A stretch of DNA of 62,921 nt, filler included, from Reclinomonas americana ATCC 50394 (taxonomy: Eukaryota), in the NCBI GenBank assembly GCA_048213135.1. It is 5 parts of 4 records of this genome, joined end to end, with 100 filler letters (N's around TTAATTAATTAA, not from the genome) between each part and the next. Parts side by side here need not be neighbours in the genome. Positions count along the whole stretch, not along the records: positions 26,804 to 57,860 come from PS015048.1; 4 more parts are not named here. The stretch is one strand, 5' to 3'. The notes below the pieces were generated by a model. The model was given only the letters and a program-made list of their open reading frames with translations. It did not search any database and had not been told where the DNA came from. The translations under genes were made by a program, and so were the position numbers. This document shows, one piece after another, positions 1-52,482 of this stretch; within the stretch, counting starts at the first letter, position 1, and every line of letters begins with the position of its first letter.

Positions 1-211
1 ACCACCTCGTCGTCGTCCCGTGTGGAAGCGTCCAAGCGTGCGCACGCGCAATGGGCGGCGTGCGTCGCTCATGGCTGGCGTGGTGGTGGTGGTGGTGGTG
101 GTGATGATCACGGATAGATGATGGAATTTCTGATCAGTTGTTGGTCAATCATGCGCCAAAGAGGGGTGGGCCAGGGGGGCGGTCACGAGGGGCGAGCCGA
201 AATAATATCAG

Positions 212-294
212 CCGAAGGTAGCTCAGCTGGAAGAGCATGGGACTGTAAGTGTTCTGATATCCCAGGGTCGAGGGTTCAATTCCCTCCCTTCGGA
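212..294 (+). tRNA. tRNA-Tyr(GTA) with 10-nt canonical intron (249-258)
   Basis: Acceptor stem CCGAAGG(212-218)/CCTTCGG(287-293), discriminator A294, D-arm TAGCTCAGCTGGAAGAGC, anticodon stem TGGGA/TCCCA with CT-GTA-A then intron gtgttctgat, T-arm GAGGG-TTCAATT-CCCTC. The C1-G72 pair is typical of eukaryotic tRNA-Tyr. Confidence 0.95.
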
Positions 295-344
295 CCTTCG
301 ACATTCAGCATGCAAATCGAAATAACTGCAACCATATCAGTGCG

Positions 345-1290
345 CAAATAAACTCACCCTCATTGAGCACGATGCTCCTCCGTGCATGCGGGCACTCAAG
401 GAGACCACATGCTCGCTCCCCTCGAACGGGATTATCCGAGCCACCAATGCCCGCTGCACATCGCTGTGGTCAGTCAGCCACACTAACTTGCACACAACTG
501 AAAAGAAACAGCTCACCAACTTCACGATTCCTCGTGCGACGAGATGGTCACAAGATCCACACGCCGACCATCCAGACTCCGCGTCAGCGACTCACGGTGG
601 TAGTAAATGTCCGAGTACTCACTTCAAGAGTGAGGGAGTGAGGGAGTGAGTCTTGCGGTGACGCCTGGAGAAGAAGAAACACACAACACACACTGCGTCT
701 CCTCGTACGAGTACGGTACGCAGAAGGCAAAGTAGGTGACGGCAAAGCAACCGCCCTCGCTTACCATCGGCACATCTTCGCCACCAGCTGGCCCGCGCTC
801 GTAGCTGTCTGTGGTGAATACACGCCTCCGCCCTCGGCCACATTGTTCCATGCCTGCCGTCTCAGCGTCTTGCGATCCCACGTGCTGGTATTCAGCGAAC
901 CACCAATGAGCAATCTCCGAGAGAGAAAAGCATTTTCCTCGTGGCAAGCGCAACTCTGGAGATCTACGCACTCGGCATTCGACCTCGGCAAACGCTTCCA
1001 ATGATTGTGTGCTCAAAGAAAGCGCATGGAGAACTAATTGGTGGGCCTTGTCAAAGTCGCTGTACACGCGGCCGGGCACACGACGCCAGCCACCATCGTG
1101 CGGCAAAACGTGCGATCGAACGGCCGCATACCGTTCGAGTACATCTTGCTCTGGTTGTTGAGATTCATGAGTCGACAGGAGAGCGTAACGCCCTCTGGAA
1201 CGCCAGCCACTCCAAAGTAGAACCACGTGCGATGCGAGGTCTGGAACGCGGTGCTCTGGTTGCACCGGGACTCGTCCACAGACAGATATC
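345..1290 (-). pseudogene. AGBL5: Cytosolic carboxypeptidase 5 (AGBL5/CCP5, tubulin deglutamylase)-like pseudogene, N-terminal half only
   Basis: Motifs LWTSP..TAFQTSHRTWFYFGV, MNLNNQSKMYSNGMRPF, VLPHDGGWRRV, YFAFCVPYSYEETQ, IYYHRESLTRSLDGRRVDLVTIS and VVSLSARMH. They fall in shifting frames with no introns to explain the shifts (~1265, ~1110, ~370). The Zn-binding HPGE motif is degraded to HGGA, and no C-terminal catalytic part is seen before the tRNA. Confidence 0.75.
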
Positions 1291-10956: not shown

Positions 10957-11056
10957 NNNNNNNNNNNNNNNNNNNNNNNNNNNNNNNNNNNNNNNNNNNN
11001 TTAATTAATTAANNNNNNNNNNNNNNNNNNNNNNNNNNNNNNNNNNNNNNNNNNNN
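10957..11056. other. Artificial scaffold linker N44-TTAATTAATTAA-N44
   Basis: Palindromic all-frame stop 12-mer centred in exactly 100 nt; an identical structure occurs four times. Confidence 0.97.
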
Positions 11057-12949: not shown

Positions 12950-13755
12950 NNNNNNNNNNNNNNNNNNNNNNNNNNNNNNNNNNNNNNNNNNNNNNNNNNN
13001 NNNNNNNNNNNNNNNNNNNNNNNNNNNNNNNNNNNNNNNNNNNNNNNNNNNNNNNNNNNNNNNNNNNNNNNNNNNNNNNNNNNNNNNNNNNNNNNNNNNN
13101 NNNNNNNNNNNNNNNNNNNNNNNNNNNNNNNNNNNNNNNNNNNNNNNNNNNNNNNNNNNNNNNNNNNNNNNNNNNNNNNNNNNNNNNNNNNNNNNNNNNN
13201 NNNNNNNNNNNNNNNNNNNNNNNNNNNNNNNNNNNNNNNNNNNNNNNNNNNNNNNNNNNNNNNNNNNNNNNNNNNNNNNNNNNNNNNNNNNNNNNNNNNN
13301 NNNNNNNNNNNNNNNNNNNNNNNNNNNNNNNNNNNNNNNNNNNNNNNNNNNNNNNNNNNNNNNNNNNNNNNNNNNNNNNNNNNNNNNNNNNNNNNNNNNN
13401 NNNNNNNNNNNNNNNNNNNNNNNNNNNNNNNNNNNNNNNNNNNNNNNNNNNNNNNNNNNNNNNNNNNNNNNNNNNNNNNNNNNNNNNNNNNNNNNNNNNN
13501 NNNNNNNNNNNNNNNNNNNNNNNNNNNNNNNNNNNNNNNNNNNNNNNNNNNNNNNNNNNNNNNNNNNNNNNNNNNNNNNNNNNNNNNNNNNNNNNNNNNN
13601 NNNNNNNNNNNNNNNNNNNNNNNNNNNNNNNNNNNNNNNNNNNNNNNNNNNNNNNNNNNNNNNNNNNNNNNNNNNNNNNNNNNNNNNNNNNNNNNNNNNN
13701 NNNNNNNNNNNCGCTGCACACCGTCGCGCTGTGCTGACACCACTGCTTCGTCCAG

Positions 13756-16316: not shown

Positions 16317-17728
16317 ATGGAGAGACAAGAGTGTCTGCGCGTGGGCGATGTATGCGCCTCGGATCCGCTCGGACTTGAGCGTGAGTCAGTGCACGCAGTG
16401 TGCTTCCGACCGCGGCGTGTGGAGCGGACACGACATCGTCCGACACCGCTCGATGCCGAGGAAGAAGGGTCTGCATGCCAGTTGTCTTCCTCTTCTCACT
16501 GTCTCTGACACCTCCTCCTCTTGCGCAGTGATGGGTATGCACTTGCCGCGGTGTGCGAGAGCGGTCTGATCCGTCTGGGCGATGCATCCACTGGTCGCGT
16601 GTCGAATGCCATGGACACGGTGGTGATGACGGCTGGTGAGGGTGGTGCGTATGTGAGTGCTGCGGCGGTGGAGCAGCAGCGAGTGGAGCATGAGCAGCGG
16701 TGTGAGAGCGATCCGGGGGTGCCTCCATTGCGGCCGCTGGTGTGGTCGGTGGTGTGGAATGCCGATGGGACGATTGGCACGGCCAAGTTGCGAGGAGGAG
16801 GAGGAGGAAGAGTGCTGTGCACGTGAGTGACTGTGTGTGTGCTCATTGATCAATGTGTGCATGCAGTACGCGTGATAATCGTGTGTTTCTGTGGACGGAT
16901 CCAATGTTGCGCGGTGTTGGTGTGCGGCTGCTGGGAACGGTGACGGATGCGGCGGCGAGTGGCATTACGGCGATGGAGGGCTCGCCCAGTGGAGAGTTCT
17001 TTGCGGTGTCGACGCCCGAGGGCCATGCGTCGGTTTGTCAATCACATCGCATGCTGTCTGATGTGAGAGAGTGACGCGCAGAGGCGCAGGTGTGGCGTGT
17101 GGGCGAGTGGACGCGACTGTCGTTGCCGGTGTACCACACGTTTGGACTGACGAGTGTGCGGTGGTCGCCCGACAGCTCCATGCTGCTGCTGACCTCGCAC
17201 GATCGGCGTGCCACCATCTGGCGATTGGAACCAGAAGGCAATGAGCTGGTGCTGGCCGCGGTCATGACTGGCCACCGCAGCTCGGTGACGTGCGGCCACT
17301 GGTCGTGTGATCAGGAGCACGTGGCCACGGGCGGCGAAGACGGCCAGATCCTCATCTGGTCGAGTGCCACGGGCGACTGCGTGCAAGAGGTCGCGTCGTC
17401 GTCGTCATCGAACCGAGCCTTCCCTTGTCGCTGCATCAGCTTCCACCCGCTCTATCCGGGCATGCTGGTGGCGGGGCTCGCCAGTGGCGGTGGCGTGCTG
17501 CTGTGGGCGGCCGACGAGTGCGCCGCGCTCGACGAGCAGCTGAAAAAGTCGGCAGTGACTGGTCTCGCGTGGCGCCCCGACGGCGCCGCACTGGCCGTCT
17601 CCTGCTCCAATGGCACCGTGGTGGTGTACGTCGACACGGCGGCTGTGTTGCACTTGCAGCAGCCGCTCCACTCACCACCATCGCGACCACCGACGTTGAA
17701 AAAGAACCCCGCAGCCGACCTGCAGTGA
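16317..17728 (+). CDS. WD40-repeat protein
   Basis: HTFGLTSVRWSPDSSMLLLTSHDRRATIW, GHRSSVTCGHWSCDQEHVATGGEDGQILIW and VTGLAWRPDGAALAV; several GT-AG introns. Confidence 0.85.
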
Positions 17729-26703: not shown

Positions 26704-26803
26704 NNNNNNNNNNNNNNNNNNNNNNNNNNNNNNNNNNNNNNNNNNNNTTAATTAATTAANNNNNNNNNNNNNNNNNNNNNNNNNNNNNNNNNNNNNNNNN
26801 NNN
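26704..26803. other. Artificial scaffold linker
   Basis: N44-TTAATTAATTAA-N44. Confidence 0.97.
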
Positions 26804-28229: not shown

Positions 28230-30535
28230 ATGCCACCCGTGAGAGGGGACGACGAGGCATCGACCGGCGCACGGCCACGGCGACGTGTACGCGCTCTGCT
28301 GCAACACGTGTTCCCTCGCGTCCTGGCCGTGGCGCAAGCAGGTGCGTGAACGGATCGATCGATCTCTCTCATTGTTGCTGCTGAGTCGTCTGCGCGCAGC
28401 CTCCTCGTCGACAGAGTCGAGAGAGGTGCAGCGACGTGGTCATGTAGAGACAGAGATCGAGGCGGCTCCGCGTGAGCTGGACGGTCCATCGGCCTCGTGG
28501 TTGTCCAAGATCGTGCGCTCGTTGCAAGGATCGTCCAAGTTGTCGGCCGACTCGTTGCAGGTGAGTGTGCAGCTGGGTGTCTTCTGGTCGCATGACTGAC
28601 ATGCACGCCACCAGGCCTTCAACAACATTCTGTTTCTNNNNNNNNNNNNNNNNNNNNNNNNNNNNNNNNNNNNNNNNNNNNNNNNNNNNNNNNNNNNNNN
28701 NNNNNNNNNNNNNNNNNNNNNNNNNNNNNNNNNNNNNNNNNNNNNNNNNNNNNNNNNNNNNNNNNNNNNNNNNNNNNNNNNNNNNNNNNNNNNNNNNNNN
28801 NNNNNNNNNNNNNNNNNNNNNNNNNNNNNNNNNNNNNNNNNNNNNNNNNNNNNNNNNNNNNNNNNNNNNNNNNNNNNNNNNNNNNNNNNNNNNNNNNNNN
28901 NNNNNNNNNNNNNNNNNNNNNNNNNNNNNNNNNNNNNNNNNNNNNNNNNNNNNNNNNNNNNNNNNNNNNNNNNNNNNNNNNNNNNNNNNNNNNNNNNNNN
29001 NNNNNNNNNNNNNNNNNNNNNNNNNNNNNNNNNNNNNNNNNNNNNNNNNNNNNNNNNNNNNNNNNNNNNNNNNNNNNNNNNNNNNNNNNNNNNNNNNNNN
29101 NNNNNNNNNNNNNNNNNNNNNNNNNNNNNNNNNNNNNNNNNNNNNNNNNNNNNNNNNNNNNNNNNNNNNNNNNNNNNNNNNNNNNNNNNNNNNNNNNNNN
29201 NNNNNNNNNNNNNNNNNNNNNNNNNNNNNNNNNNNNNNNNNNNNNNNNNNNNNNNNNNNNNNNNNNNNNNNNNNNNNNNNNNNNNNNNNNNNNNNNNNNN
29301 NNNNNNNNNNNNNNNNNNNNNNNNNNNNNNNNNNNNNNNNNNNNNNNNNNNNNNNNNNNNNNNNNNNNNNNNNNNNNNNNNNNNNNNNNNNNNNNNNNNN
29401 NNNNNNNNNNNNNNNNNNNNNNNNNNNNNNNNNNNNNNNNNNNNNNNNNNCGTCAACTCGATTCCGCCCTCGCTCAACTCGCTCTCCATCTTCAACATCA
29501 TGCTGCGCTCGTCGCCACCCGACTCGGATCTCTTGCCGTTCCTTGCGCAAGTGCGCATCCCCAAGAGCACGCTTGGTGGCACCGATTACAAGACATTCAT
29601 CGCCACGCTGGCGCGCGTGCAGCAGTACTTGCCGGTGTGGTACTACTCGTCGCTGGTGCTCGGACGCGCCACCGGCAGCTTCGACAAGATCCTGCTCTTT
29701 GCCGCGCAGCGATTCGCACAGGGTTCGTGCCTTTTCCCATGCTACGTTACCTGTGTTCGTCGCTGAGCCACGTTGCGCAGACATCAAGACGCGACAGGCT
29801 GTGGTGTCGGCACTGGTGTATCCGGCGTTCATGCTGCTGCTGTCGATCGGCGGCATCACGTTGCTGCTGGCGCGCATTCTGCCGCAGCAGATCAGCACGT
29901 TCGAGTCGATGGGCCTGCCGGTGCCGGCCAGTTTGGCCTTCGTGAATCTGCTGCTGCAGCGCACCGAGCTCTTCTGGGTGTCGCTGGCGGTGCTGCTGCC
30001 GAGTGCGCTGTCGTCGCGCTTGCTGCCATACCGCACCCACATGCGATTGCAGTACATCAAGCTGCACACGCCACTCGGCCGACTGCGCTTCCTGCGCGAC
30101 AAGGCCGCCCTGCTCAACGTGCTCTCCATGCTGACGGCCGAGCAGATCAGCTCGCGCCTGCTGCTCGTCTGCACCAACCTCAATGGCAATCCCGTGCTGC
30201 AGCACATGCTGGAGAGCATGGCGGCGCGCGCCAAGAGCGGTGCCTCCTCCGAAGAGGTGCTGTCGTACATGCTGACGCAGGCGCACGTCTTCTCGCCCTA
30301 CGAGGTGGCCTACCTGCAAGCGTGCTTCCTCACCGGCAAGCACGCCACCGTACAAGACGGTCTGCGATACTTGGCCGCCGCCGCCCAACGCGAATACCAG
30401 TCGCGACTGGACACACTGCTCGGCCTGCTCAATCCAATCACTACCGTGCTGGTGGGCATGCTGGTGGCCATGATCGCCTTCCTCGGCGTCGGCCCGCTGG
30501 TGCAGCTCACCGACGCCGTCTCTGTTAATGCATAA
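28230..30535 (+). CDS. gspF: Type II secretion system F family (GspF/PilC) inner-membrane platform protein, intron-containing
   Basis: KLSADSLQAFNNILF (start of first T2SSF domain), LPVWYYSSLVLGRATGSFDKIL, IKTRQAVVSALVYPAFMLLLSIGG..ILPQQISTFESMGLPVP, LHTPLGRL, G.SSEEVL..AHVFSPYEV, and C-terminal LLGLLNPITTVLVGMLVAMIAFLGVGPLVQL TM helix. At least three GT-AG introns (~28342, 28561, 29723); N gap 28638-29450. Confidence 0.85.
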
Positions 30536-30580
30536 TGAATGAAGTTTCGAGGTAGGACATCACGGCTATTGATCTTGATC

Positions 30581-34132: not shown

Positions 34133-36229
34133 TTATTGAGATCCACTGGCCATGGAGCCGCCACTGGCCAACAGCAGCGCCTGTGCGGCGGGTGGCGGGG
34201 GTGCCAGGTCGGGGTGGAACGAGCGCAGCTCCTCCCACAGGTGTGCCTTGATCATGTCAGTGTTCAACTCAATCACCTCGAAGCTGAAGTCGAGCTTCTC
34301 CGGCGCCTCGACCTCCTCATCCAGATTCCGGATGGGCGCAAAGTACGGGTGCTCGAGTGCCTGTTGGATTGTCATGCGTTCCTTGGGGTGGAATCGCATC
34401 ATGCCCAGCATCAGGTCGAGGGCTGCGGCGTGCGAGTGAGTACAGGGGGCATGTACCAAAGAGGGAGTCTTGTCGCCAGTGCAAACCTTCAGGCGGTGCA
34501 TTCGGCATCAGCGTGCTGAAATCGGCGGCCTTCTTGACGGGCTGTCGAGCCAGCCAATCCAGAGCCTGCGTCGGTCACAGAAGGGGGGTGAGTGGAAAGA
34601 ATGCATAAGGAGGAGAGACAAGAGGTGTCTGACCTCGCGCGAGCCAATGTCAGCAATGCTCTCCCTCGATGGTGTGCCCACCAGCGAGCAAATGACCATG
34701 ATCTGGTCCAAGTCTGCGGTTCCACAAGTGAGCACGGGATCCCGTCGAGCGAAATACAGGAGACGGAGAACGCAACAGGACTTGCCCGGAATCAGCGGTC
34801 GGCCAGTGTAGGTCTCGGCAAAGATGCACCTGTTACCCGGCGAGTGAGTAAACACAAGTGATGGGAGAGAGAGAAAGAAGGGGGTAACACCACGGGACGA
34901 AACGCTGCGCTCCACACATCGATGGCTTCGCCGTACGTCTTGAGTTGCATGAGCAACTCCGGAGCACCTACAAACACGCAGAAGGTGAGCATGTACGACA
35001 ATGGCTCGACATTATTTGAAGCAGTTCATCAGCATCATCATCACGCAACGATACCCTGCAGTCGTGAGAATCGAGAGTGAGACACGCAGAACATGATGCA
35101 TGAACGGGGGCAACAGGAGGAGACGCAACATCGAGTCGTGACGTACAGGGTCATTTCGACCTTCTTCTCCTCCTCGTAGTGCATGGAGCGAGCCAAACCA
35201 AAGTCGCACAGCTTCAAATGCCCGTCTTCCGAGATCAGCAAATTGCCGGGTTTCCTGTGTTTCACGTTCAGACTGGACTTCAAGACGCGACGCGGATGCC
35301 AAAAGACGCAACAGATCGCGATGCAAGATGTTGCACGAGTGGCAGTACTTCAATCCCTTGAGCAGTTCGTACATCCATAGCCGACGGTTGTGCTCCGACA
35401 CCATCGACGGACCGGCCTTGAGCTCCTTGGCCAGATCGCGATCACCAAGCTCAAACACAAAGTACAGCTGCTTGAAGTCGCTGCGCCGTGAATCACACGA
35501 GCAAGTGAGGATGCAGAGAAGCCACCTACGTAACACAGCAACAACAACAGAACGTAACTCGTACGACTGCGGCCGCGCCATGTCGAACAACTCAATCACG
35601 TTGGCGTGCTTCAAGTGACGCAGAATCTTGACCTCGCGCAGCAGACTGCCAAAGGAAGGGTAAGCACAACGCGGCGTGAGACAATTAGCAACAGAGAAGA
35701 AGAGGGGACGCGGGCGCGCACCGCTTGGCCTCGGGAGCACTGCGGAACACGCCATCGACTCGCTTGATGGCCACATCGCGACCTGTGCGGAAATCCGTGG
35801 CTCGCCTGTGACATGCAATGAGTGGAAGACACACACAGAGTGAGCATGACAGAGAGAAACGCAACACGACAACACCAAAGGCGCCGGCTCCGAGCACTTC
35901 ATGGATCTCATAGCTGTCATGACGGAAAGCATGCTTACTGTCAGTTTGATGCCACTTTGTGTGGAGAGAGCGGGTCTGTGTGCAAGTGGACTCACCGCGT
36001 CGGAAGTGTCCACTCTGCGCTCACACAGCAAGCAAGCAAGAGAGAGAGAGAGAGAGAGTGGCGTGAGAACGAGGCCATGGTCGTCCGGACAGCACACACT
36101 CACACACACATTAACACAAGCAGCACACGAGACACGCGCAAGCACAGAGAGGAGAGAGCATAGTGCGGCAGAAGCAGAGACAAAAAGGGGGTGTTGCAGT
36201 GCAAAGACAAAGCAAAACACACGCGCCAT
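34133..36229 (-). CDS. Mitogen-activated protein kinase (TLY activation motif)
   Basis: LGAGAFGVV, VAIKR, AKRLLREVKILRHLKHANVI, HRDLKPGNLL, LKLCDFGLAR, MTLYVTTRWYRAPE, ALEHPYF; about 12 introns including a 6-nt microexon. The start codon is tentative. Confidence 0.92.
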
Positions 36230-36269
36230 TTTTCCCGTGTGACAAACNNNNNNNNNNNNNNNNNNNNCG

Positions 36270-40633: not shown

Positions 40634-41684
40634 NNNNNNNNNNNNNNNNNNNNNNNNNNNNNNNNNNNNNNNNNNNNNNNNNNNNNNNNNNNNNNNNNNN
40701 NNNNNNNNNNNNNNNNNNNNNNNNNNNNNNNNNNNNNNNNNNNNNNNNNNNNNNNNNNNNNNNNNNNNNNNNNNNNNNNNNNNNNNNNNNNNNNNNNNNN
40801 NNNNNNNNNNNNNNNNNNNNNNNNNNNNNNNNNNNNNNNNNNNNNNNNNNNNNNNNNNNNNNNNNNNNNNNNNNNNNNNNNNNNNNNNNNNNNNNNNNNN
40901 NNNNNNNNNNNNNNNNNNNNNNNNNNNNNNNNNNNNNNNNNNNNNNNNNNNNNNNNNNNNNNNNNNNNNNNNNNNNNNNNNNNNNNNNNNNNNNNNNNNN
41001 NNNNNNNNNNNNNNNNNNNNNNNNNNNNNNNNNNNNNNNNNNNNNNNNNNNNNNNNNNNNNNNNNNNNNNNNNNNNNNNNNNNNNNNNNNNNNNNNNNNN
41101 NNNNNNNNNNNNNNNNNNNNNNNNNNNNNNNNNNNNNNNNNNNNNNNNNNNNNNNNNNNNNNNNNNNNNNNNNNNNNNNNNNNNNNNNNNNNNNNNNNNN
41201 NNNNNNNNNNNNNNNNNNNNNNNNNNNNNNNNNNNNNNNNNNNNNNNNNNNNNNNNNNNNNNNNNNNNNNNNNNNNNNNNNNNNNNNNNNNNNNNNNNNN
41301 NNNNNNNNNNNNNNNNNNNNNNNNNNNNNNNNNNNNNNNNNNNNNNNNNNNNNNNNNNNNNNNNNNNNNNNNNNNNNNNNNNNNNNNNNNNNNNNNNNNN
41401 NNNNNNNNNNNNNNNNNNNNNNNNNNNNNNNNNNNNNNNNNNNNNNNNNNNNNNNNNNNNNNNNNNNNNNNNNNNNNNNNNNNNNNNNNNNNNNNNNNNN
41501 NNNNNNNNNNNNNNNNNNNNNNNNNNNNNNNNNNNNACGCACATGTGCGAGAAGAGAAATAATCAGACGCATTGTAATTGCAACGCACACGAGACACTGT
41601 TATCAGAGGACTCAATGCGTCACTCTCTCTCTCTTTCTCCCTCCCTCTCGCTCTCTGTTTATTCAACAGGCAAACACGAGTCAC

Positions 41685-44600: not shown

Positions 44601-47131
44601 AGACCGCTGTTGGATGTGTCGCCGGCAGGTAAGCATGACGGACCTGTCTTTCCATCCCTCCCGCCCCTGCACACCTCGTTGCTCATTTCCACCAGGTCTG
44701 TGCTGCGAGCTGCGCGATCTGCGACTGCGACCCGTGTGGCTGCCGGTGGCACTCGGCGACGATCCAACATACATTGAGATGAAATTCGAGGCCCGTGTGT
44801 ACGGCGAGATGCGCATCATGCTGGCCGACAGCACTGCCGTGCATTCGCTGCGACTGGATGGCATCCGTCGCGCTCCCGTCAACTTTGGCGACAAGTCATA
44901 CACCGTATGCTTTGGTTGTATCTCTGCGGCGAATGCCAGTCAGCCGTGCGAAACCGCCATTCGTCGCGGTGGCGGGCCCGAGTGGACCGTGTCTGTTGCG
45001 TTGCATGCGAATTGCGCCCTCGTTCCAGTTGATGTGAGCTCACCGTGTCATGATCAGACCACGAACAATGCAGCGCTGGCAGTGGAGGGTTCGCGCGACT
45101 CTTACTGGGTCGTGTACGAGCGCAAGATGACTGCCGACGGACCGCTGGCGCGCATCCAAATCGGTCGCACCACCGATGTGGGCGACGCGCCGCTGTTGGT
45201 GTGGGAGGACCCGTCTCCGTTCACAGTGCAGAACATTGCCGTCACTTGCTGCGATGATCCGGTCAGTGTCTACCAGCTGCATGTGCGAGTCATCAATGAG
45301 GTTGGTCGGACGCTGCATGTAGGTGTTCGCACTCTTCCCCCCTCACCCAGCCTCCTTTGTGCGCAGAATCGTGACGGTCGAAAGGTGTCATCAACCTTTC
45401 CGCCCACTGCGTCGGAGACGTTGTCGAATGATCAGCTGGTGGGTGTTTCTCCCTTGTTGTTCATGAGTGGTTCTCGAGGAGAGGTTGTTGACGAATATCA
45501 CCCTGTGTAGCCGACGGGAGTGCGGCGTGTGGCCAACTCGTCGAGTGTGTTGGCCTTTGACGTAGCCGCGTTGCGAACTCGCAATGTCGTCTTCTCGCTG
45601 GCTTCGCTGGTGCAACCGTCGCTGCCGCCGCCGCCCACGCGATTCTCTGCTGACGGTACGTCATCGTCAGTGTGTGGTTTTGCGCTCNNNNNNNNNNNNN
45701 NNNNNNNNNNNNNNNNNNNNNNNNNNNNNNNNNNNNNNNNNNNNNNNNNNNNNNNNNNNNNNNNNNNNNNNNNNNNNNNNNNNNNNNNNNNNNNNNNNNN
45801 NNNNNNNNNNNNNNNNNNNNNNNNNNNNNNNNNNNNNNNNNNNNNNNNNNNNNNNNNNNNNNNNNNNNNNNNNNNNNNNNNNNNNNNNNNNNNNNNNNNN
45901 NNNNNNNNNNNNNNNNNNNNNNNNNNNNNNNNNNNNNNNNNNNNNNNNNNNNNNNNNNNNNNNNNNNNNNNNNNNNNNNNNNNNNNNNNNNNNNNNNNNN
46001 NNNNNNNNNNNNNNNNNNNNNNNNNNNNNNNNNNNNNNNNNNNNNNNNNNNNNNNNNNNNNNNNNNNNNNNNNNNNNNNNNNNNNNNNNNNNNNNNNNNN
46101 NNNNNNNNNNACAACCATCGCCAACTGCTGTGAAGAAGGACGACACCAGTGGGGCGACGTAGGTGCTGCTCGGTGATCCCTGGGCGATGAGCGGAGGTGT
46201 CGGCGGAGTGGAGAGCGACGTCATCAGTGGGCTGTGATGCGTGCGCAGCACCGGGATCGACAGCGTTGCTGTACGAAATATCAAATGTGAGTGAGTGAGT
46301 GCAAACACTCTCGGAAAAGACAAGGTACGGCGCAACATGAGGCAAGCCGGTCATCGGGGAGCGACTGAGAGGCGCCGAGCGGCGCCGACAATGGCATGGA
46401 TTTGGCTGCTGTTCGATTGGCGGTGTATGGGGCAGCCAAAGCCGGCGCCGACACAGCCTGCAGTGACGGGGACGGTCCCGCACTCTGTTCACCCGAGCCA
46501 TCGCCATCGGGGCTGTGCCGACGAAGAGTATCGACCTCCGGCGCCGACGACGAGCTCAGCTCACCGCCGCTCTCGAACGTCGACACGCGAGCCCACGGCA
46601 TACCTGCAACGTCCACAGCAATGGTGAGCAGAAGAAGAACAGCCACTGCNNNNNNNNNNNNNNNNNNNNNNNNNNNNNNNNNNNNNNNNNNNNNNNNNNN
46701 NNNNNNNNNNNNNNNNNNNNNNNNNNNNNNNNNNNNNNNNNNNNNNNNNGGTAGTGGGGGCATGTCTCCGCCGCTGAGTGGGGGCATGTCTCCGCCGCTG
46801 CCTCCGTCGTCGCTGCCGCTGTGTGCGCCTCTCATTGGCACATCTGCGGCCATTGCCGGCGCGCCCAATCTGCCGGGTGAGTCCAGTGTGTGTCTGTCTG
46901 TCTTCATCGGTTGGCGCCACAATCACTGACGCTGCTTCTGGTCGTTTTTTAGGCACTCCGACCGGTGCATCACCAAAGCCGTACGCACGCAGATCGAGCA
47001 GTCCTTCGCCTTCACCAGTGTTGCGTCCAGCACCACCGGCACTACCGCCGCCACTGGTCGCCACCACCACCGCCACCACGACTTCCGTGACGCGTTCTGG
47101 CGGACCATACCGACCTTCGTCGCAGTCGTGA
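41685..47131 (+). CDS. Large protein with DarT/DUF4433-like ADP-ribosyltransferase-fold core and a downstream beta-rich (FAMeT/DUF3421-like) domain; the part beyond the 45688 gap may be a separate gene
   Basis: Spliced WIANLRPVHRCSVEALASIARVGEILS, GDRDLDTHQHVFAIYGP..YGAVALIISPDVMKHPD, DAHSCLEAHLPPRVPVEWVERVVL; then YWVVYER..IQIGR..PLLVWEDPSP. Confidence 0.6.
46753..46800 (+). repeat. 24-bp coding tandem repeat (SGGMSPPL) x2 abutting an N gap
   Basis: AGTGGGGGCATGTCTCCGCCGCTG occurs twice directly after the gap; possibly the edge of a longer collapsed array. Confidence 0.8.
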
Positions 47132-48426: not shown

Positions 48427-51400
48427 CATTGCTGCTGTTGTTGTTGTTGCTGCTGCTGCATTTGCCATTGCTGCTGCTGTTGCTGCTGCTGTTGCTGCTG
48501 CTGCTGTTGCTGCTGTTGCTGCTGCTGTTGTTGTTGCTGCCACTGCAGCAGCTGCTGGTGTTGTTGCTGCATCTCCATCTGCTGCGTGTGGCGAAGACTG
48601 CCGAACAAGAGCTGGTTGCTGCCGACTGCCGGCACCATCGGCGACATGAGGTTGGCTGGCACCTGCATGAACGGATCCGTCACTGTCGACAGCGTCTGCG
48701 ACGGTGGATCGTTCGTCCGCATGCTGCGGCTTGCCGGGAAACCACGCGGACGCGGCGGTGATTTGATCGGGCCGGTCTCTGTGAGTTGGGAGGTGGTTGA
48801 GAATCACTGTCTCCCTAAAACGTGCGGCAGACGTGCGCTGCGCAACTCGTCTCACTCGTCGTCCGTCGCACACTTTCGTGGGAGTTGTCGAGTACTCCCG
48901 TCTCACCGAGTCGCATGGGCGGCTAATGCAGCACGATGACGGTGGTGAGTAACACGCACACAAGAGACACAATCAGTCACATTCACACACGCTCTCACCA
49001 ATGTGTTGTGTCGTCGGCGTCCCTGCGGCTGTGGTTGCTGTTGTGGCATCGACTGGGTGGGTGCCAACATGCTGTCATCAGGCGCACTGAACGTGGGCTG
49101 CAACAATCCCGAGTCGTCGTCGGCTGCGGCGCCGCTGTCGACGAGACCATCCACAACCAGTTCTCCGTCCATGCCAGCAACGCCACTCTCCGAGTCGTCC
49201 ACCATAAAGTGTGCCGTCGACTGCCCACCGTTCTGTTGCTGCTGCTGCTGCAGTTGCTGCTGCTGCAGCTGCGCCTCCTCTCCAGCATTGACAATCACCA
49301 CACGTCCACTGTTGGAGCGTGACGGGCCGGGGCTGCCTCCTCGGGAGAGTGCACGAAGAATTCCCGTCGGCAGCTTGCTGGTCGACGTCTCGGCACTCGA
49401 CGCTGCTGTGATGGCGTTGCGGACCGTGTTGACAAATTGGGTCGCACGCGCCGAGTCGTACCCGGCCGCTGTTGCGGCAGCGCCACCACCCGTACTGAGA
49501 ACCGATGACGTGCCGCTGGCACCGCGCGGCGAAGTGCTTCGCGAAGCCGACCGCAGATAGTGGCCAATGATGGTGAACGCCACACCGCCGGACGCACTCT
49601 GTCGCAGGCTCCCCGAGGCCGAGGCCAGATCATCGCCGTCCGCTTGTGTCGCTGGGTCGTCGGCACGGCTCGCGGTGGGCGATGTCTCGTCGAACGAAGC
49701 ATCGTCGCCACCATCGGGACCGGCAACCAGCATGGCACGTCGGCGCAGATATCGCTGACGTGTGTTCTTCAGGCGGTCACGCAGCGAGTCGCTGATGGTC
49801 TTCCAGTGGTCCACATTGTCGGTGATCAGTTCGTCACTCGAGAGCTCCGCGGCAACGATGGAATCGTCGAGAGTGTCGTTGAGGTCGACTGGTGCGCCAC
49901 CGCCCAGCACAATGTCGTCCACGTGTCCGTGCAGCCACGGGTGCTCCAACATTTGCTCGAGGGTCAGTCGTGCAGAGCCGTCCTTGACCAGGAGGCTCTT
50001 GAGGAAGTCGATGCACAACTCGCTCACCAGACCCTCGGGGTAGTGCACTCTGTGGGTTTTGTTTGCACACTGTAAGCAACAACTACCGCAGCCGGGAAAT
50101 GGTCGTGCAGAGTGGGGTTAAACGGCACGACACGCAACTCCTTGGTCTTGATTTCGCGATACATGCCGATTTCGCTGTCGGCAAAGAACGGCAGCTTGCC
50201 GAAGAGCATGACATACAGTGTGACGCCCATGGCCCACACGTCAGCCGCACGCCCGGGCACCGATTCGCCTTGCAAGGCTTCGGGTGCCACAAACGCCGGC
50301 GTGCCCTTGGTCATGCGCATCACGTCGTTGTCGGCAGTAAAGGTGGAGCTGACACCAAAGTCGCCAATCTTGAGGCGATCGTTCGAGTCCACCAGCAGAT
50401 TCTCCGGCTTGATGTCGCGATGTACAATCTTGTTCTCGTGCACTGTCGAATGCGACTGCAAGTCAGAAGCTGAATGCAGCACGGGGACTGCGTGCAGTCA
50501 GTCACGCAACAATACATCATGCCCTCGATCATGTCAATCATGTACTTGCGAGCTTGCGTCTCGTGCAACGCCGGCTCCTTGGAGTACCCGTTCTTCTCCA
50601 AACTCATCACTGCTCCGCGCTCAACATACTGCATCGAAAGATAAACAAATAAACAGTGAGACTCTACTACTACTACTCCCACGAGCGAGCACGACGACGC
50701 ACTCACCTCCATCACCATGTACAGCTTGTGCTTTGACGGGNNNNNNNNNNNNNNNNNNNNNNNNNNNNNNNNNNNNNNNNNNNNNNNNNNNNNNNNNNNN
50801 NNNNNNNNNNNNNNNNNNNNNNNNNNNNNNNNNNNNNNNNNNNNNNNNNNNNNNNNNNNNNNNNNNNNNNNNNNNNNNNNNNNNNNNNNNNNNNNNNNNN
50901 NNNNNNNNNNNNNNNNNNNNNNNNNNNNNNNNNNNNNNNNNNNNNNNNNNNNNNNNNNNNNNNNNNNNNNNNNNNNNNNNNNNNNNNNNNNNNNNNNNNN
51001 NNNNNNNNNNNNNNNNNNNNNNNNNNNNNNNNNNNNNNNNNNNNNNNNNNNNNNNNNNNNNNNNNNNNNNNNNNNNNNNNNNNNNNNNNNNNNNNNNNNN
51101 NNNNNNNNNNNNNNNNNNNNNNNNNNNNNNNNNNNNNNNNNNNNNNNNNNNNNNNNNNNNNNNNNNNNNNNNNNNNNNNNNNNNNNNNNNNNNNNNNNNN
51201 NNNNNNNNNNNNNNNNNNNNNNNNNNNNNNNNNNNNNNNNNNNNNNNNNNNNNNNNNNNNNNNNNNNNNNNNNNNNNNNNNNNNNNNNNNNNNNNNNNNN
51301 NNNNNNNNNNNNNNNNNNNNNNNNNNNNNNNNNNNNNNNNNNNNNNNNNNNNNNNNNNNNNNNNNNNNNNNNNNNNNNNNNNNNNNNNNNNNNNNNNNNN

Positions 51401-52482
51401 NNNNNNNNNNNNNNNNNNNNNNNCGCGCCGCCGTCAACCAGCGACTGCGGTCGCATCATCACGGTGCCCCCAATGTCGGTCGACGGGTCCACTCGCATGT
51501 GCGTGATCGAGGCCGCATGGCCAGCTGTGCACGTGCCGGCCACCGTCACCAGCACCGCACCGCTCACCGACTCGGTCATCGAGGGCGTCGCGTGCTCGTG
51601 ACTGCGATGGTGTGGCAGGTGTCGGTCGTCGTCGGTGACCACCGACGACGCGTCGCCATGTGCAGCTCGCATAATGACACTTCCGCTGACCGCCGTCAGT
51701 GCCGAGTCGTGCGGAATCCCAAACGACTCGGACATGATCTCCGTCTGCAAATGCGCCACCACGGTGGTGAGACGACATGCATCTACGCTCACACCCATTG
51801 TGCTTGAATGCGTACCTTGGTCTGCTCGAGGCTCCCGGTCGACAGCATGCGATTTGGTGGTCGGCGCATCACCTGCGGAGGTGCCGACTTGTCTGGCGAT
51901 CGCGGCGACGCCACCACTTCGTACACTTGTTCGCGTGGGGCGGCCGCAGTAGCAGGCTCCGGCTGCTGTCGCGGCTGGCGATGCTTGTGGCGGCGGTGAT
52001 GATGCTGATGCGCATGCCGCTGGCGAGACCGTTCTTTATCACTGCCACCACTCGCAGATTCCACTGCAGTATTATTGGTGGCACCAGCGATCGACGACGA
52101 AGATGCGGCGGTCACGCTCCCCTGAAACTGCGCCACTGTGACACACAAAACAACGTCGGTGAGTGATCTTGTGTAGAATAGAGAGACAGAGAGAGAGAGA
52201 CAGAGAGAGAGAGGGCACGCGCGAAGGAAAAACTTTTTTCGGTTCACACCAAAGGCAGTCGGTGTTCGCAAATGCACTGACAAGTGACGTTTCAGCGTGT
52301 CTTTCGTGCACAGCCAGCGCACACACGCAAGGGAGAGAGACAGTCAAGGAAGAGAGGGGGAATGGGGGAGAGGAGAGTGCGTGCAAGGAGGAGAGTCGAA
52401 GAGAAACAGCGTCGTCCTGAAAAAATTGGCTGTTTCCTATTGCCTCACCTGGCGACGCTCCCCGACTTGCGCACACTCCCAT
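47244..52482 (-). CDS. CaMKK/SnAK(GRIK)/Sak1-family Ser/Thr kinase with MGVCAS acylation motif and long polyQ-containing tail
   Basis: KLYMVMEYVERG, YLHENKIVHRDIKPENLL, KIGDFGVS..TKGTPAFVAPE, GRAADVWAMGVTLY..FGKLPF, LEHPWL. The N-lobe lies in gap 50741-51423; first exon ATG GGA GTG TGC GCA AGT..G|GTGAGG. Confidence 0.9.
48361..48570 (-). repeat. CAG/CAA polyglutamine tract punctuated by W/M
   Basis: Q-rich run in the ORF 47244-48722. Confidence 0.9.

Follow-up and report, generated by a model that had tools for sequence, protein, structure and literature searches.

The stretch of DNA that was analysed (the window; 62,921 nucleotides of the genome assembly GCA_048213135.1 of the jakobid Reclinomonas americana ATCC 50394) contains at 28230-30535 a single plus-strand gene that very probably encodes GspF, a protein of the mitochondrial type II secretion-derived system (miT2SS). 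Positions count along the window and all features of the gene given below lie on the same strand. The coding frame was read from the ATG at 28230 to the TAA at 30533-30535 and comprises, after removal of the introns and of a run of N's, 1323 nt in a single open frame, i.e. 440 amino acids (aa) and a stop (checked by script). The original prediction of a spliced gene with at least three GT-AG introns held: three introns were found, of 58, 54 and 58 nt. Exon 1 (28230-28341) starts with the ATG, encodes aa 1-37 and, one base into codon 38, gives way to the donor GT at 28342. Intron 1 (28342-28399; 58 nt, GTGCGT..CAG, phase 1) is supported by the frame and by the agreement of the exon 1/2 junction (..VAQA/A/SSS..; compared by eye) with the published R. 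americana GspF protein (Horvathova et al. 2021; PMC8134430). Exon 2 (28400-28560) encodes aa 38-91 and is followed by intron 2 (28561-28614; 54 nt, GTGAGT..CAG, phase 0). Exon 3 as a whole spans 28615-29722 and is broken by the run of N's (813 letters, 28638-29450): its first 23 nt (28615-28637) encode AFNNILF and the CT of a Leu codon, and its second part (29451-29722) encodes aa 99-189, a divergent first cytoplasmic domain, and ends one base into codon 190. Intron 3 (29723-29780; 58 nt, GTTCGT..CAG, phase 1) precedes exon 4 (29781-30535), which encodes aa 190-440 and the TAA, and contains three transmembrane segments (TMS1-3) as well as the second cytoplasmic T2SSF domain. Exons 1 and 2 together make up an N-terminal extension of 91 aa, with 12 Arg, and with seven R/K against three D/E in the first 40 aa, in line with the Arg-rich extension of about 90 aa that had been expected.

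Contigs from a public sequencing run (X1) carry the gene of a relative in spliced form. X1 was the only run with matches, which made up a small fraction (0.05) of the words; among the runs that are on record as RNA none contains the gene stretch. Three X1 contigs were found to be 90-95% alike to the gene, which corresponds to an orthologue that differs by about 9% in DNA. The contigs start at 28478, so that intron 1 and the 5' end lie outside their coverage. Record 1 covers exon 2 over 28478-28561 and passes from exon 2 into exon 3 without intron 2, record 2 has three letters in place of 29718-29778 and is thereby 58 nt shorter, the length of intron 3, and record 3 is colinear with exon 4, with 64 differences over the 723 nt of 29808-30530. 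The contigs thus lack introns 2 and 3, as predicted for transcripts of a spliced gene if X1, as we guess, is RNA. The 40 listed differences fall in 37 codons, of which 36 are synonymous and one (codon 30068-30070) changes Thr to Met. Judged from these differences, the X1 contigs come from a related strain or species, in which the orthologue is under purifying selection. Before 28478, record 1 has a loose end of 125 letters that is unlike the window.

The membership of the GspF family follows from the second half of the protein, where the T2SSF profile check was passed: with Pfam T2SSF (PF00482), exon 4 reached 34.5 bits and a longer open reading frame (ORF) piece 36.5 bits, the gathering score being 25.2. 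The match extends over 30179-30487 (aa 323-425) and represents the second cytoplasmic domain. The best NCBIfam model for exon 4 was that of GspF (TIGR02120; E 1.8e-17, 63.7 bits), colinear with model positions 159-401 of 401, whereas the models of PilC, the related protein of type IV pili, were weaker (E 1.4e-9 and 2.4e-7). When the second domain was aligned by hhalign to 105 bacterial GspF proteins, a probability of 97.5% and an E of 6e-12 were obtained. PilC (3jc8) was the only sequence match in the PDB (E 1.1e-5), and GspF is colinear with this PilC model over 64..384, at a root-mean-square deviation (rmsd) of 9.5. For the orthologue of the jakobid Andalucia godoyi an AlphaFold model exists (mean predicted local distance difference test score, pLDDT, 69), whose second domain fits the cytoplasmic domains of PilC, OutF and EpsF with Z 10.8-11.2 and an rmsd of 2.6-3.2 over 105-112 residues; the individual matches were PilC 2whn (Z 11.2, rmsd 3.1 over 108 residues), OutF 5nbg (Z 11.2) and EpsF 2vmb (Z 11.0). 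Nothing reached E<=0.001 in a Foldseek search with the full-length Andalucia model, in which PilC, EpsF and OutF nonetheless ranked at the top.

Hydropathy (Kyte-Doolittle) places TMS1 at 29804-29878 (~aa 198-222), with Tyr203-Pro204 encoded at 29819-29824, TMS2 at 29969-30025 (~aa 253-271; hydropathy peak 1.64) and TMS3 at 30422-30502 (~aa 404-430), with Asn407-Pro408 encoded at 30431-30436; for the published R. americana GspF the TMHMM count was likewise three (PMC8134430). The SALxYP motif before the first and the LLxP motif at the C-terminal transmembrane helix, both read from the sequence beforehand, are both present: SALVYP precedes the first hydrophobic segment, and the last segment begins with LLNP. 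The Tyr-Pro of TMS1 is nearly invariant in bacterial GspF (Y in 104 and P in all 105 of the 105 proteins) and both residues are kept in 6/6 eukaryotic rows. The equivalent of Pro408 in TMS3 is P in all 105 bacterial rows, and the residue before it is mostly E (73/105; V in 14, T in 11), is Asn in R. americana, and is Gln or Thr in the four remaining eukaryotic rows with sequence at this position. In the literature the family signature is described as Tyr-Pro in TMS1 plus Glu/Gln-Pro in TMS3, and the channel of the Klebsiella PulF trimer as lined by Y168 (TMS1) and E370 (TMS3), each beside an invariant Pro (PMC10790770).

The sequence relationships set the protein apart from its bacterial counterparts. 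A phmmer search with exon 4 against 1.84 billion representatives yielded 540 matches at E<=1e-3, only three of which reached E<=1e-30 (50-55% identity). Eight of the matches (P0001-P0005, P0009, P0010, P0021) are 46-70% identical to the query, as compared to 19-34% for bacterial GspF among the near-full-length matches that were retrieved. A profile search of a collection of 5.8 billion proteins, in which the best 8000 candidates were scored, recovered at least 11 proteins at E<=1e-20, the named ones being the 'mitochondrial T2SS F-like protein (GspF)' of Andalucia godoyi, the GspF of Malawimonas jakobiformis and T2SS protein F of Acrasis kona. Bacterial rows for the trees (45, then 12) were picked from the best near-full-length matches among the 105. 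In a first tree the R. americana protein stood apart from 45 bacterial GspF with a support of 100 in the Shimodaira-Hasegawa-like approximate likelihood ratio test (SH-aLRT). In a subsequent maximum-likelihood tree 12 eukaryotic rows (the R. americana protein, the GspF of Andalucia, Malawimonas and Acrasis, and eight unnamed rows) were separated from 12 bacterial GspF with a support of 100/100 by a branch of 2.84 changes per site. The protein thus groups with the eukaryotic clade, apart from the bacterial rows, and the prediction of a eukaryotic, mitochondrial-type GspF is supported by this branch. A further comparison within the jakobids is provided by Andalucia godoyi GspF (P0164; KAF0853007.1), which has the same architecture, an N-terminal motif RVYRLVRHL (see below), the Tyr-Pro of TMS1 and an x-Pro in TMS3, and is 66% identical over the first-domain piece and 53% over exon 4; it differs in having Gln, not Asn, before the Pro of TMS3, and is not sister to the R. 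americana protein in the GspF tree.

The gene itself is already known, as it was published by Horvathova et al. in 2021 (PMC8134430). The translation is virtually identical to the 437-aa R. americana GspF row in Supplementary Data 1 of that article, a row that carries no accession: the two share exon junctions and three predicted transmembrane segments, and are the same from about aa 52 to residue 400. The assembly copy (440 versus 437 aa) has V4 for A4, an extra SR and HV for RA, differences that are all confined to the N-terminal ~51 residues; the two proteins were compared by eye over the 400 visible residues, that is, the published protein up to its last ~37. The differences suggest that another strain or allele may be represented. 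The lineages listed as having the miT2SS include the jakobids, with R. americana itself named (PMC8134430), so the idea that the locus would expand the known distribution of the system was not sustained, and the gene adds nothing in this respect. What is added is the exon-intron structure, spliced contigs of the type expected from expression and the indication of purifying selection in a relative, together with the confirmation of the published GspF in a genome assembly. That R. americana would have the whole miT2SS rests on the table of PMC8134430 and not on the window; the table has R. americana rows for GspD, GspE, GspG, GspDL, GspDN1-3, GspEL, GspEN2A, GspEN2B, Gcp6 and Gcp7.

Taken together, we consider the locus to be the nuclear, spliced GspF gene of the miT2SS of R. 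americana, or of a very close strain, as described in 2021, with a probability of roughly 0.93. Several observations weigh against this identification. The equivalog cut-off of TIGR02120 (424 bits) is far from reached by the 63.7 bits that come from exon 4 alone. The first-domain piece (29452-29721; 90 aa) had no Pfam match at E<=1, and hhalign puts only aa 146-197 on residues 114-167 of bacterial GspF, the end of the first cytoplasmic domain (Cyto1), with a probability of 22-36% and E values of 4e-4 to 1e-3. The Glu of the PulF channel is Asn in R. americana GspF, and therefore an ion-conducting role may not carry over. The targeting predictions tabulated for R. americana GspF are weak or negative (TargetP 1.1, mitochondrial targeting peptide score 0.635, class 5; TargetP 2.0, 'OTHER'; MitoProt, 0.026; MitoFates, 'no'; PMC8134430), and GspF is not reported as localised by microscopy in any species. 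Finally, 813 positions within exon 3 are N in the assembly, the identity with the published protein derives from a single comparison by eye, and the RNA nature of X1 is a guess.

Of the two T2SSF domains that had been read from the sequence, the second is thus confirmed by profile and fold, and the first was not recovered by Pfam and only weakly by hhalign. A comparison of the first with the second domain by hhalign gave no match (probability 0.1%), and a stand-alone model of the first domain (pLDDT 64.5) gave a best Z of 4.8 among 48,161 chains, which is too weak to argue either way. The first-domain piece is at the same time the best-conserved part among eukaryotic GspF, with 66-82% identity to ten of them. 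By colinearity, the first domain would be T2SSF as well. The pieces encoded by exon 1 (37 aa) and exon 2 (53 aa) had no Pfam match at E<=1 either. What is kept with bacteria is then the second T2SSF domain and the transmembrane core, and the loss of the Glu of the proposed PulF channel bears on the question whether the mitochondrial platform acts as an ion channel.

Two other explanations of the locus were weighed. A bacterial contamination, or a recent and independent transfer of a bacterial gspF, has the bacterial origin of the GspF family in its favour and nothing beyond that; it was rejected, and given next to no probability, on account of the three spliceosomal-type introns, two of which were confirmed in the spliced contigs of the relative, the eukaryotic genes on the same scaffold, the identity to bacterial GspF of 19-34% against 46-70% for the eukaryotic group, and the fully supported (100/100) placement in the eukaryotic clade. 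The run of 813 N's invites a different objection, namely that it conceals a real insertion, such as an unusually long fourth intron or a mobile element, in which case the true gene model would differ. The length of the run keeps the frame (813 = 3 x 271), and the window has seven or eight other gaps, of 423-903 N, which indicate that such stretches could not be assembled. The run interrupts a Leu codon (CT/N..N/C) and both its flanks are coding up to the final base, and neither of them retains intron letters (GT.. or ..AG); the published protein runs unbroken through the position as ..AFNNILFLVNSIPPS.. (PMC8134430); and X1 record 1 has 23 letters between 28561 and 29452, which are 28616-28637 plus 29451, so that the flanks are joined exactly and nothing extra is present. 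Because of the coding flanks, the unbroken published protein and the join in the contig of the relative, we read the run as a scaffold gap, without coding sequence, between contig ends that truly abut. The three remaining introns are moreover only 54-58 nt long, and a hidden insertion is accordingly considered improbable.

With the identification as mitochondrial GspF in place, the function can be framed by homology and by the cited papers (PMC8134430 and PMC10128026). GspF would be imported into mitochondria and inserted in the inner membrane, the N-terminus and the two helical domains facing the matrix, and would oligomerise. There it would act as an assembly platform where the matrix ATPase GspE would drive the polymerisation of the pseudopilin GspG into the intermembrane space, the polymer heading to a pore of truncated GspD in the outer membrane. 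As a platform component in the inner membrane, GspF would stand alone in the miT2SS; the bacterial partners GspC, GspL and GspM are reported as absent in eukaryotes (PMC8134430). In the same article, Gefionella GspF was found to interact with itself and with GspG1 in bacterial two-hybrid assays, and N. gruberi GspF is marked M, for the mitochondrial proteome cluster. With bacterial GspF/PulF (TIGR02120; PMC10790770) the R. americana protein has in common the second cytoplasmic domain, the three transmembrane segments, the Tyr-Pro and x-Pro pairs and the colinear order. It differs in that the bacterial N-domain is undetectable, the first cytoplasmic domain is beyond the reach of Pfam, Asn stands in place of the channel Glu, the protein is encoded by a nuclear, spliced gene, and a eukaryote-specific extension of 91 aa is present. 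This extension probably carries sorting or assembly information.

The only conserved element of the extension, upstream of the domains, is a nonapeptide, RVRALLQHV (R19-V27; 28284-28310, in exon 1), that resembles a peroxisomal targeting signal type 2 (PTS2) and is followed by F-P. The PTS2 has been described as [RK]-[LVI]-x5-[HQ]-[LAF]; position 5 is hydrophobic, the signal lies in the first 40 aa and a short first exon often encodes it, and variants in which position 2 or 9 is M or V (e.g. RLx5HV, RIx5HM) were noted as likely functional (PMC7710942). The R. americana nonapeptide agrees with the placement (aa 19-27, with the hydrophobic L23 at position 5) and misses the strict consensus by the V at position 9. 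With a relaxed pattern, to which it is the sole match in the protein, 10 of the 10 eukaryotic GspF with a complete N-terminus were found to have exactly one match, located N-terminally (the strict pattern was found in 3/10), as compared to one of the 105 bacterial GspF when their first 100 aa were searched. Shuffled N-terminal parts matched the relaxed pattern in 6-29 of 2000 cases, a test that is biased, as the pattern was devised after the sequences had been viewed.

We then inspected by eye the table of PMC8134430, in the sections of the Gsp families and of Gcp6 and Gcp7, for the same motif. It was recovered at the N-termini of GspE (8/8 rows), GspF (8/8), GspG (15/16, one with T at position 5), GspEL (9/10), GspEN2A (8/10) and GspEN2B (5/7 rows seen), i.e. 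in six matrix-side families and across jakobids, malawimonads, heteroloboseans and hemimastigotes. Among the rows of the outer-membrane and intermembrane-space families of the miT2SS it was not seen, the N-termini inspected being those of GspD, GspDL, GspDN1 and GspDN3, and within Gcp6 it occurred in the two Naegleria rows only. It is conceivable, on these sequence patterns, that a PTS2-type element, R-phi-x2-phi-x2-[HQ]-phi, often followed by x-P, is common to the six matrix-side families and that the three Pex7 paralogues Gcp1-3 are its receptors, although we hold this as a tentative idea. In the available main text of PMC8134430 'PTS2' occurs once and 'motif' seven times, none of them concerning N-termini, and the supplementary alignment figures may show the motif; neither PTS2 nor Pex7 occurs in the 2023 review PMC10128026 or in PMC7050145, and the literature searches gave nothing relevant.

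The extension could accordingly be more than a mitochondrial presequence: the nonapeptide would be a PTS2-type signal that is read by Gcp1-3 or by Pex7, and the sorting or assembly of the matrix-side parts would depend on a Pex7-like receptor. The recurrence of RVRALLQHV-like elements, at aa 19-27 and in exon 1 in R. americana, throughout eukaryotic GspF and the other matrix-side families speaks for this reading, as do the facts that Gcp1-3, WD40 proteins related to Pex7, are distributed like the miT2SS and that NgGspEL fell in the peroxisomal cluster (PMC8134430). It is opposed by the mitochondrial, not peroxisomal, location of the Ng and Go GspE, GspG1 and GspD in yeast, which has Pex7, and by the R. 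americana GspG row of the same table, which is without the motif (PMC8134430). The strict consensus fails at position 9 (V), the relaxed pattern is post hoc, with the bias in the shuffle test that this entails, and Arg-rich amphipathic helices are also typical of mitochondrial presequences. GspDN2 has a similar string internally, which would lie within a helix of its domain, so that the pattern can arise structurally; secretin N-domains have such a helix. On balance we regard the PTS2 reading as possible and rather doubtful. If true, it would tie the miT2SS to a peroxisome-like machinery by a concrete molecular link, so far only hinted at, and if Gcp1-3 read the motif, this link between mitochondrion and peroxisome could be tested by simple binding and targeting assays; the motif is in this sense a modest, testable addition. 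The internal string of the GspDN2 rows is [RK]-L-x5-H-F, followed in most species by D-[RK]-P-P, and the same rows have positive C-terminal scores with a predictor of type 1 peroxisomal targeting signals (PTS1; PMC8134430).

The surroundings of the gene are eukaryotic as well. The window contains linkers of the form N44-TTAATTAATTAA-N44, with stops in all six frames, at 10957-11056, 26704-26803, 57861-57960 and 61453-61552; adjacency across them is therefore artificial, and the scaffold of GspF corresponds to 26804-57860. On this scaffold a GH30 glycosidase gene (PF02055, E 6.7e-18), on the same strand as GspF, starts at 30539 or 30581, and protein kinases are encoded at 35015-36247 and 50027-50497, in agreement with the flanking eukaryotic genes noted in the original prediction. 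The two in-frame ATGs of the glycosidase gene, 30539 and 30581, lie 3 and 45 nt past the GspF stop, and the second is followed by a hydrophobic stretch that resembles a signal peptide. The ORFs for WD40, kinase and PP2C proteins that are located at 17-25 kb belong to another scaffold. Two peptides of the WD40-repeat ORF among these (17075-17725, plus strand; PF00400, E 1.7e-17) were not found in the Gsp/Gcp table of PMC8134430, of which the first 400 characters per entry were compared, a weak test, and gave no sign of Gcp1-3.

Further scaffold gaps in the window are located at 12950-13711, 40634-41536, 45688-46110, 50741-51423, 55507-56206, 56740-57455 and 59699-60320. Their flanks are sometimes simple repeats, such as CTC before 40634 and CA before 59699, and, as with the gap in GspF, their length may in some cases be an over-estimate.

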